Below, in pieces: positions 32,764-35,647 of a DNA stretch of 64,000 nt. Under the pieces are notes generated by a model. The model did not search any database, was not told where the DNA came from, and was given only the letters and a program-made list of their open reading frames with translations. The stretch comes from Acidobacteriota bacterium (lineage in GTDB: Bacteria > Acidobacteriota > UBA6911), in NCBI GenBank assembly GCA_963664705.1, contig OY761556.1, forward strand, positions 2,816,001-2,880,000, in the 5' to 3' direction. A program made the translations under genes and the position numbers. Position 1 is the stretch's first letter, and every line of letters begins with the position of its first letter.

Positions 32764-33150
32764 ATGAAAGTTTGCACAATTGCGGCGGCATTGTTGCTGC
32801 TACTGACTGGTTTGGCTTATGGAGCGGATATTGACGGCACCTGGGCCGGAACAATTCAAGGCCCTGATGGCGGCCAGGGATTTCCCATCAGCTATACATT
32901 CAAGGCCGATGGAGCGACTCTGACCGGAACGATGCCGGGCATGCCCGGACCGGATGGTACTCCCGGAAAACCGATCGCCATCAAAGACGGCAAAATCAAC
33001 GGCAACAACATTTCATTTGTCGTTGTAATGGACATGATGGGCCAGGAAATGAAAATGGAATACAAAGGAGTTCTATCCGGCGATACGCTCAAGCTAAGCA
33101 TGGATGCAATGGGTACGCCGATGGAATTCACGCTGAAAAAAGCGAAGTAG
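32764..33150 (+). CDS. Exported hypothetical protein (small beta-rich domain)
   Basis: AAGGAG SD, signal peptide AYG-A, IDGTW.G, TF...G..LTG, I.DGKI.G..ISF. Confidence 0.75.
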   Translation: MKVCTIAAALLLLLTGLAYGADIDGTWAGTIQGPDGGQGFPISYTFKADGATLTGTMPGMPGPDGTPGKPIAIKDGKINGNNISFVVVMDMMGQEMKMEYKGVLSGDTLKLSMDAMGTPMEFTLKKAK

Positions 33151-33224
33151 GCAAAATTTACCGAATTCGTGGATTTGGTGGCGGCACGATCCGCCACCAA
33201 TTTCATGCGCTTGCAAAGCAAAAA

Positions 33225-33722
33225 CTAAAAGAAGTTATCCCGGATAGTCTGGCGGCGCAGCCGCTGTCGCTGTTCGGGAGTCAATTGCTGCCACAATCGA
33301 AAGTTCTCCAAAAGGCGGGCTCGTTTCGCCGGATCCATCCGCAGGAATCGTCGATAGATATTCCGCAACTCCTGCTGCCTTGCTAATGGCAGAGCTCGAA
33401 ACCTCAAGTAATTCCTCTCCAGCCTCAACCTCTGTGAGGACCCCAGCTTCCGATACGCGCCATAGTTCTCCAGAATCATCTCCCTATCCTGGCGGCTCAT
33501 TTTACGCAACTGTTCCTGATAGCCACGGATAACCCGCTGCTCTTCAGGCGGCAGTTTCCGGAATGCCTGGTAACGCTCCCGCAAAGTCTCTCTCTGTTCC
33601 CGGGTCAGATTGTTCCATACCTCTTCGGGAGAAGCCTGTGGCTCCTGTGCCTGGGAAACTGCAGTCACGCAGAGGAACGCCAGGAAGAGGATGCTGAGAA
33701 TGACATCTGTGCGGCTCTTCAT
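33225..33722 (-). CDS. DUF3106-like exported Arg-rich helical repeat protein
   Basis: Signal peptide, then W/F-x-x-L-[TPS]-x-E-[QR] repeats; ATGA overlap with the upstream gene. Confidence 0.82.
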   Translation of the reverse strand: MKSRTDVILSILFLAFLCVTAVSQAQEPQASPEEVWNNLTREQRETLRERYQAFRKLPPEEQRVIRGYQEQLRKMSRQDREMILENYGAYRKLGSSQRLRLERNYLRFRALPLARQQELRNIYRRFLRMDPAKRARLLENFRLWQQLTPEQRQRLRRQTIRDNFF

Positions 33723-34027
33723 TTTTTCTTCTTCTCTTCTTTTTTGGTTTGTTTCGTACCCGATTTGGGCTTGCTCTCGGCCGAATCATCCGACGACGCG
33801 AACAGATCGAAATACCGATATTTCTCAAAATCCTGCAACAATTCGAGATTTTCCAGCAATTCCCTATCCTTCAGGATTTCCTTTTCCTCTTCGGTCAGGA
33901 CCACCTTTTGAGCCGGAGCCTCCTTCGGTTTCTGAAAAGCCGGAAGCGGGCCGGCCACGAGGACCATGGCCAAAATTCCGAAAAGCCGCTTCAGCAGATT
34001 ATTTCCAGCAAAGCCGGCATTCAACAT
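33719..34027 (-). CDS. Small exported protein carrying an anti-sigma-tail-like acidic motif
   Basis: GGAG SD, signal peptide, DRELLENLELLQDFE motif, Lys-rich tail; inside the sigma operon. Confidence 0.7.
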   Translation of the reverse strand: MLNAGFAGNNLLKRLFGILAMVLVAGPLPAFQKPKEAPAQKVVLTEEEKEILKDRELLENLELLQDFEKYRYFDLFASSDDSAESKPKSGTKQTKKEEKKKK

Positions 34028-34037
34028 AGGGCTCCGA

Positions 34038-34529
34038 TCAATTGAGCTTCTTTTCGTGAATCAGCTGCGGCAGGTTTTCAATCGTGTCAAAATCCTCTAG
34101 CAAATCCAGATTGTTGACCACAGCCATGTCCTGCAGCAGCGGAAGGTCCTGAGCTATCTGAATATCATTCATGGATGAGGCCCGCTCCGGCCCGACATCC
34201 GGTCGCTTTAGGACCAGGATGCCGGCGAAAATAATGGACGCCAGCGCACCGGCAGCTACAAGCTGTCGCGGGATCCCCCATTGTCTAATCCGGCGCCACC
34301 ACGGTTTTGGCCTGGCGTTCAGTTTAGCCTGGAACCGGGCGGAAAAATCCGCGGAAGGCTCGAGGCTGACATCCAGCGCCGGCAGGAGTTCCACCCACTC
34401 CGAAGGTGACAGGACAGCACGGCAATCCGCGCATGCGGCATAGTGAGCTCGGACCGCCCGAGCTTCTCCGCCGCTCAGTTCTCCGTTATGCACAAGTTCA
34501 AATCTCTCACGAGCCTCTTTGCAGTTCAT
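34038..34529 (-). CDS. Zinc-finger (zf-HC2/ZAS) transmembrane anti-sigma factor
   Basis: MNC...H-x3-C-x2-C (HYAACADC), single TM, acidic periplasmic tail; ATGA overlap with the sigma gene. Confidence 0.88.
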   Translation of the reverse strand: MNCKEARERFELVHNGELSGGEARAVRAHYAACADCRAVLSPSEWVELLPALDVSLEPSADFSARFQAKLNARPKPWWRRIRQWGIPRQLVAAGALASIIFAGILVLKRPDVGPERASSMNDIQIAQDLPLLQDMAVVNNLDLLEDFDTIENLPQLIHEKKLN

Positions 34530-35176
34530 TGGTGTAAAAGCTCGGGCATCAAGGGTTTCAGCCTTTCCGCCAGAGTCTCCTTTGCTCTATGGATCAGCGA
34601 TTTCACCGCTTTCTCGCTGGTTTTCATAATCTCGGCAATCTCCAAATAGGAAAGCTCCTGGTATTTGCACAAAATAAAGGCCGTTCGCTGGCTCTCAGGA
34701 ATCTGGTCCAACGCTCCCCGCAGTGCATCGGCAATAGCTTGTCTTTCCAGTATTCGCTCCGGGCCGCTGACCGCAAAGGCACCGGATGCAAAGCCTGCTT
34801 CCGGCTCCTTTTCAACGGACAGCGACCGATGCTCCGCGCGGAAGTGGGGTTTGCGCACTTCATTCAGGCAGACATTGGTCGCGATCCTGTAAAGCCAGGT
34901 AGTAAATCTGGACTTTACCGTGTAGCTGGCGGCGCTTTCATATACACGCAAAAACACCTCCTGCGCGAGCTCTTCCGCCACGCGCCGGTCCCGTACAAAT
35001 CGATAGGCAAAGTTGATCATGGATCGGGTGTACCGGTCAAATAAGCGATCAAACGCAACCGTATCCCCTTCCTTGAACCGCAGCATCAACCGCGCATCTT
35101 CGTCGCAGACCTCCGGAGCGTCCTCTTCAACCATGTGCATCCCCAGGCACCCGTCCAGGATACTTTCGGATTCCAT
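34526..35176 (-). CDS. ECF sigma factor
   Basis: AEELAQEVF, F.TWLYRIA.N, LSY.EIA, S..AVKSLIHRA; GAGG SD. Confidence 0.95.
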   Translation of the reverse strand: MESESILDGCLGMHMVEEDAPEVCDEDARLMLRFKEGDTVAFDRLFDRYTRSMINFAYRFVRDRRVAEELAQEVFLRVYESAASYTVKSRFTTWLYRIATNVCLNEVRKPHFRAEHRSLSVEKEPEAGFASGAFAVSGPERILERQAIADALRGALDQIPESQRTAFILCKYQELSYLEIAEIMKTSEKAVKSLIHRAKETLAERLKPLMPELLHQ

Positions 35177-35206: not shown

Positions 35207-35235
35207 TTAAACACCAGGTCGCCAAAAAAGTTCCG
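35207..35235 (-). promoter_or_regulatory. ECF-type promoter CGGAACTTTT-N11-GTGTTTAA for the sigma operon
   Basis: GAACTT-N16-TTTAA spacing; same consensus as the divergent promoter. Confidence 0.75.
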
Positions 35236-35266: not shown

Positions 35267-35295
35267 CGGAACTTTTGGGGAACCGTCGTGTTTGA
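35267..35295 (+). promoter_or_regulatory. ECF-type promoter CGGAACTTTT-N11-GTGTTTGA for the divergent repeat-protein gene
   Basis: GAACTT-N16-TTTGA; twin of the 35207-35235 element. Confidence 0.75.
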
Positions 35296-35332: not shown

Positions 35333-35647
35333 ATGGCAGCAAAAATGTTCATTTCAGGGCTCATGATAGGCGGAGCATTGCTGATGGGAACGGGAATGGC
35401 CAGTGCAGGAGAAATACGGCGCGATGTTCGGGAAATCCGAAGAGACAACCGGGAAATCCGGATGGATCGAAGAGAGATCCACAGCGATAAGGTCGAACTA
35501 AGGCAGGACCAGAGACAAGGGGCACCCCGCTCCGAAATCCGGAGTGACAAACGGGACCTGCGACGGGACACGCGGGATCTGAACAGGGATAAGGCGGACC
35601 GCCGCCAGGATGTTCGGGAACTCCGTCACGATCTCCGCACCCGCTAG
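35333..35647 (+). CDS. Exported heptad-repeat (Arg/Asp-rich) protein
   Basis: AAGGAG SD, signal peptide ASA-G, about ten [ED]-[IL]-R-x-D-x-R heptads. Confidence 0.8.
   Translation: MAAKMFISGLMIGGALLMGTGMASAGEIRRDVREIRRDNREIRMDRREIHSDKVELRQDQRQGAPRSEIRSDKRDLRRDTRDLNRDKADRRQDVRELRHDLRTR

Follow-up and report, generated by a model that had tools for sequence, protein, structure and literature searches.

The window analysed here is a 64,000-nucleotide stretch of an Acidobacteriota genome (contig OY761556.1), within which a four-gene operon and a divergently oriented neighbour were delineated as follows, with positions given in window coordinates.

33225..33722, minus strand: DUF3106 protein, 165 aa (PF11304, E=4e-21).
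33719..34027, minus strand: small, likely exported protein, 102 aa (called from homologues, an AlphaFold2 model and purifying selection).
33824..33871, minus strand: tail-motif copy carried by the small protein at K53-E68 (sequence, profile and BLASTP comparison).
34038..34529, minus strand: zinc-finger anti-sigma factor, 163 aa (zf-HC2 at residues 3-37; PF13490, E=6.9e-8, over cut-off).
34086..34133, minus strand: anti-sigma tail motif, Q133-D148, within a six-residue acidic/leucine repeat.
34526..35176, minus strand: ECF sigma factor, 216 aa (Sigma70_r2, Sigma70_r4_2 and TIGR02937, all over cut-off).
35209..35234, minus strand: promoter-like site of ECF type, GGAACTTT-N12-GTGTTT, oriented towards the sigma operon.
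35268..35293, plus strand: second copy of the promoter-like site, facing the divergent gene.
35333..35647, plus strand: divergent gene, 104 aa, with a signal-like stretch and charged seven-residue repeats; no Pfam family.

All four ORFs of the operon lie on the minus strand, in the order sigma factor, anti-sigma factor, small ORF and DUF3106. The sigma factor is of the ECF type, with regions 2 and 4 only. The anti-sigma factor has a single hydrophobic segment at approximately residues 90-107, read from the sequence and presumably transmembrane, with a C-terminal acidic tail beyond it; with a zf-HC2 head encoded at +1 and one hydrophobic segment, the pair conforms to the ECF/zinc-finger anti-sigma (ZAS) arrangement. 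An ATGA stop/start overlap is present at the sigma/anti-sigma junction and again at the small gene/DUF3106 junction, the latter bearing out the translational coupling of the DUF3106 gene proposed in the initial annotation. Downstream, a 10-bp GC-rich inverted repeat (33175-33200), spotted by eye and not flagged by a scan, lies between the DUF3106 gene and a converging gene at 32764-33150, and is possibly a two-way terminator.

Purifying selection acts on the small ORF, which is a genuine gene. It has 28 close relatives and 125 profile homologues, the database labels of its relatives point to Acidobacteriota, and the family comprises 293 representatives at 50% clustering. Values of pS/pN for the three closest core pairs were 0.21/0.00, 0.33/0.03 and 0.46/0.03, and pN was below pS in 155 of 171 core pairs, some of the distant ones being probably out of register. 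The ORF is conserved, which disposes of one of the grounds on which the initial annotation would have been abandoned. The protein comprises a signal-like stretch, a flexible linker, a motif-bearing predicted helix and a lysine-rich end, and its core is acidic; in the AlphaFold2 model one confident helix (residues 46-77) is set between flexible parts, with a pTM of 0.32. A hydrophobic N-terminal stretch is found in 140 of the 150 homologues with enough N-terminus, which suggests a signal peptide, and the small protein is likely to be exported. Some positions peculiar to it, such as R55, K69 and F76, are invariant or nearly so, suggesting further constraint.

The small protein and the anti-sigma tail share a motif to an extent beyond chance. 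Both peptides singled out in the initial annotation are present, at positions within one base of those claimed, and both fit the 15-residue pattern proposed for them, D-x2-[VL]2-x-N-L-[DE]-LL-x-DF-[DE], with seven identities. The accompanying claim of likeness at the DNA level (34087-34134 versus 33824-33871) is sound, but the likeness is secondary to that between the proteins: identity over 18 codons was 0.61, 0.89 and 0.50 at the first, second and third positions, respectively, and the maximum at second positions reflects protein constraint. BLASTP of the anti-sigma factor against the small protein returned E=1e-5, and the local alignment score of 58 (shuffle mean 22.9) was reached in none of 20,000 composition-keeping shuffles. 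With a profile built from 99 small-protein homologues, the window protein having been left out, the anti-sigma tail was the top non-self match among 97,603 genome ORFs (E=0.45), and a broader profile built from free copies alone again placed the adjacent anti-sigma factor first (E=0.0017). The motif can be read as four to five six-residue acidic/leucine units. Against the LED repeat profile (PF20854), the anti-sigma tail gave a weak match of 18.1 bits, below the cut-off of 59, and the small protein gave none. The pairwise alignment spans the membrane segment and tail of the anti-sigma factor and the signal-like stretch and core of the small protein, and an alignment running from the hydrophobic region to the motif fits an anti-sigma factor without its sigma-binding head. 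Additionally, the tail of another zinc-finger anti-sigma factor (P0197) falls, by its score, within the small-protein family (E=1.8e-8), and the motif is doubled in tandem in four small-protein homologues (P0035, P0036, P0123 and P0124).

The motif is a short one in which L, E and D abound, and the small-protein family is without known function, as might be expected if the likeness were compositional convergence or a leftover and the small protein an ordinary sigma target devoid of a signalling role. However, the failure of composition-keeping shuffles to reach the observed score, the ranking of the adjacent anti-sigma factor above every other non-self ORF in the genome, and the recurrence of the linkage in two phyla, described below, make this highly improbable. 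As a separate observation, the next match of the broad profile after the anti-sigma factor was the DUF3106 protein itself (E=0.62), and the small-protein helix opens in a manner similar to a DUF3106 repeat (minus strand, 33840-33900 and 33590-33630, respectively).

Comparison of 13 loci, one of which had its small core anchored one repeat off, indicated that tail and free copy are old paralogues. Identity was 53% among tails and likewise 53% among copies, as against 33-34% between tail and copy, and the last value was no higher when the two came from one genome (33%) than when they came from different genomes (34%; permutation p=0.71). Tail and copy thus did not co-vary within genomes across the 13 loci, and identical residues shared a codon in 34 of 84 cases in cis and 450 of 1043 in trans. 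Recent duplication or gene conversion was considered and rejected, since the sets are more alike within than between and there is no excess in cis. The locus of genome G311 (L103/L046) has no small gene; among the tails of L093-L108, its own most resembles a free copy, and its DUF3106 protein, in this one case, is without about one N-terminal repeat. The G311 form is possibly the product of deletion or conversion between paralogous parts.

The last gene of the operon encodes a signal-like stretch, which suggests that its product is exported, followed by basic 18-residue helical repeats. It matches PF11304 at 75.9 bits (curated cut-off 24.3) and carries 33 K+R against 18 D+E in its mature form, in keeping with its earlier description as a basic, DUF3106-like helical repeat protein. 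The predicted structure (pLDDT 85.9, pTM 0.58) has eight helices after the N-terminal one. Foldseek returned no match at E<=0.001, with CnrX at E=6.8, and the best Z score in the structural comparisons, 6.3, was to an unrelated protein; fold and sequence searches of solved structures together gave nothing significant.

The distribution of the module was then examined, the locus counts being descriptions as opposed to tests, as related loci are not independent. The small-protein profile matched 22 of the 137 genomes of the class, and in one of these, G311, what it matched is the tail of the anti-sigma factor. Conservation of the four-gene order had been suggested as a check on the initial annotation, and the order sigma, anti-sigma, small gene, DUF3106 was found in 19 of the 21 remaining matched genomes, this one included, the contig ending after the small gene in the other two; three metagenome loci show the same arrangement over the length of their sequence. 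G311 itself has a three-gene form, and G318 a DUF3106 remnant only. The phylum's other classes contributed 20 DUF3106 loci, among which acidic anti-sigma tails are common and no free copy was detected. In a second phylum, DUF3106 was present in 43 of 201 genomes, and 16 of the 38 loci examined have a free copy (12 by profile, two by eye, and two variant small ORFs with an LLEFLG-type motif), none being found in the remaining 22. There the copy lies before the sigma gene in 12 loci, between the anti-sigma and DUF3106 genes in three and after DUF3106 in one. Across both phyla, a DUF3106 gene accompanies every free copy found whose locus is sequenced far enough on the side concerned. The variable position and frequent absence of the copy indicate that the core of the module is the anti-sigma tail with DUF3106, the free copy being a frequent accessory.

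DUF3106 relatives were not found in plasmids or phages, and a scan of genome contigs gave one poor match. A weak DUF3106 signal in E. coli was dismissed as chance, as it lies inside gabD and contains stops, and an apparent fusion of small protein and DUF3106 (P0060) is likely to be a frameshift artefact, having a signal-like stretch in mid-protein and an unrelated end and occurring on one contig. No fusion of tail and DUF3106 was seen in the 14 inspected of 22 longer DUF3106 proteins. A lead to PA3281-3285 of P. aeruginosa yielded no usable information. DUF3106-like repeats were also noted in long proteins of bdelloid rotifers (P0224-P0226 and P0230; Rotaria, Adineta), and DUF3106 is mentioned in two papers on Helitrons.

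An unannotated gene of about 500 aa, its product resembling an outer-membrane barrel, precedes the sigma module in ten loci (L110, L111, L114, L115, L119, L121, L122, L170, L171 and L172), and in two loci of one genus an unannotated, exported-looking and possibly barrel-type gene directly follows DUF3106 (L093:2471-3454 and L095:89-1069). All ten second-phylum loci with the upstream gene have a free copy, which, with the alignment of the small protein's hydrophobic stretch to the anti-sigma membrane segment, might point to a membrane-held headless anti-sigma factor, or to a link with an outer-membrane protein, in a trans-envelope relay. Such a relay is very unlikely, however: the ten loci are probably related, this genome lacks a homologue of the barrel-like gene (no Pfam match in those scanned), the small protein's hydrophobic stretch is short, and lipobox-like sites occur in just 13 of 140 small-protein homologues.

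With regard to regulation, the promoter that the initial annotation would have used as a reporter (35267-35295) is a plus-strand site directed at the divergent gene; the copy belonging to the operon is that at 35209-35234 on the minus strand, through which the operon is predicted to be autoregulated. The pattern GGAACTTT-N12-GTGTTT, defined from these two back-to-back copies, has three instances in the genome, where 0.03 would be expected at one spacing. The third copy is directly before a secreted-looking gene (G000:C1:6886423-6886940, minus strand; L190:1923-2441), referred to here as Spy/CpxP-like on the strength of Metal_resist and LTXXQ matches that are weak and below cut-off. Immediately upstream of it, and on that strand too, is an unannotated 440-aa ORF whose product is possibly an outer-membrane protein. 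A similar site precedes the sigma gene in six of 14 class-level loci, and homologues of the divergent gene, which is likely to be a target of this sigma factor, adjoin five of 16 (L093-L108). At L117, L118 and L124, where DUF3106 accompanies an RpoE-like sigma factor, the gene upstream of sigma encodes a charged repeat protein that also looks secreted but belongs to a different sequence type, echoing the divergent gene at 35333-35647. Envelope protein-folding stress is indicated by the nature of the predicted targets, one Spy/CpxP-like and the other a secreted charged repeat protein. Taken with the promoter sites, this suggests an autoregulated envelope-stress response, although rpoR of Cupriavidus metallidurans was not found to be autoregulated, which advises caution on autoregulation here.

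Since the genome encodes an RseP-type protease, regulated proteolysis is possible. The free copy could be pictured as a sink for whatever attacks the tail, be it an inducing cationic ligand or a site-1 protease. Produced through the sigma factor, it would serve as a negative-feedback shut-off and need no binding to DUF3106. Its place under the predicted autoregulated promoter, the protease, the mostly unstructured nature of the small protein and its acidic core all agree with this. It is nonetheless unlikely, as no protease gene linked to the module was found among the listed neighbours and the copy is invariably accompanied by DUF3106, whose start it often overlaps.

The three-gene core of sigma factor, anti-sigma factor and DUF3106 protein is already known. 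Anti-SigAb activity has been described for both AabA and AabB of the Acinetobacter baumannii SigAb-AabA-AabB system (PMC12153292), which, like the present locus, combines an ECF sigma factor, a single-pass anti-sigma factor and a periplasmic DUF3106 protein (AabB, ACX60_04555, is annotated as such) in an operon with overlapping genes, autoregulated there as is predicted here. That operon matters for fitness, and in an AlphaFold model AabB wraps around AabA at its periplasmic end, the mechanism being left open by the authors (PMC12153292). The outside support for the RseB-like role suggested earlier for DUF3106 is this published predicted model, with which such a role would be consistent. The passages on SigAb (PMC12153292) report three genes and no free tail copy, against four genes here, and AabA (107 aa) was modelled as CnrY-like, whereas the head of the anti-sigma factor here is of the zf-HC2 type. 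The signal to which SigAb responds is copper (PMC12153292); in the present locus the mature DUF3106 protein has neither His nor Cys, which argues against direct metal sensing of the CnrX type.

Group ECF37, exemplified by RpoR of C. metallidurans, has DUF3619 at +1, DUF3106 at +2 and the promoter TGTCAACC/CGTT (PMC7826278), and shares with this locus conservation of a DUF3106 protein and, at +1, an anti-sigma factor that crosses the membrane once. Here, in contrast, +1 is a zf-HC2 protein with no DUF3619 or RskA-like Pfam match at E<=1, the small gene is at +2, and DUF3106 follows behind it at +3; the repeated promoter-like site found is GGAACTTT/GTGTTT. By anti-sigma domain and gene order, the locus is not a member of ECF37. 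Group ECF281 likewise has at +1 a zinc-finger anti-sigma factor spanning the membrane by one helix, and a -35 box of GGAACTT; in one subgroup, a heavy-metal-resistance-family protein is at +2. The locus resembles ECF281 in anti-sigma type and -35 box only: the -10 of the group is given as GTCTAA, differing from the site here, and the ECF281 passages mention neither DUF3106 nor a tail copy and list phyla that exclude this one (PMC7826278). In E. coli RpoE-RseA-RseB and C. metallidurans CnrH-CnrY-CnrX, a periplasmic partner on the outer end of the anti-sigma factor controls sigma release, and a free tail copy is absent from both as described (PMC12153292, PMC6851896); DUF3106 gave a significant structural match to neither RseB nor CnrX. 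The three-gene core is thus not new. The free copy, for whose proposed role the initial annotation knew of no described example, was not found in the literature searched, most subscription papers being beyond reach.

The explanation tentatively preferred, if put at somewhat short of an even chance, is that the free copy competes with the anti-sigma tail for the basic DUF3106 protein and thereby sets the threshold for sigma release. DUF3106 would grip the anti-sigma tail, so that sigma is kept off, and the exported copy would bind the same surface of DUF3106 as the tail. Being largely unstructured, the copy would normally be cleared and would accumulate under envelope protein stress, whereupon it would pull DUF3106 off the anti-sigma factor, which could then be cut or relaxed. 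The titration or decoy role originally proposed for the small protein is compatible with the data. Tail and copy are opposite in charge to DUF3106, the three gene positions seen across phyla are as expected of a diffusible factor, and the absence of the copy from many working-looking modules is as expected of a modulator; tandem doubling, mobility within the operon and dispensability all fit a competitor. Against it stand the lack of co-variation between tail and copy, though both might be expected to track one binding site, the free copy's own conserved residues, and the translational coupling of the small gene to DUF3106, which would make a plain competitor a fixed offset unless its stability were regulated. 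Moreover, AabB alone lowered SigAb activity in E. coli, an effect that the authors placed beyond the RseB model (PMC12153292).

The coupling, the conserved residues and the lack of co-variation would also suit a small protein that serves as a third subunit, seated on a second DUF3106 repeat stretch and stabilising the inhibitory complex as a co-inhibitor, not a decoy, as would the single case of G311, where the small gene and about one DUF3106 repeat are both missing. A co-inhibitory role of this kind is nevertheless rather unlikely in view of the absence of the small gene from all 20 other-class loci and the failure to find it in 22 of 38 second-phylum loci, of its varying position, and of the tolerance of tandem motif doubling.

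Returning to competition between copy and tail, a broader version is possible, if doubtful, namely that several phyla operate a widespread extracytoplasmic partner switch, exporting a headless tail copy that frees the anti-sigma factor of its DUF3106 guard and whose level would report the load on envelope proteases or export. In the PhyR-NepR-EcfG partner switch, a cytoplasmic sigma mimic captures the anti-sigma factor; control by molecular mimicry and partner exchange would be common to both systems, whereas the mimic proposed here copies the outer tail of the anti-sigma factor and would act outside the membrane. If correct, the switch would be a periplasmic mirror image of PhyR sigma mimicry, and competition by the free copy would add control logic outside the membrane of a sort not found in the literature searched. 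DUF3106 modules occur in many phyla, A. baumannii included, and the free tail copy marks a likely DUF3106 ligand, providing a ready reagent for establishing how such sensors are held off and released.
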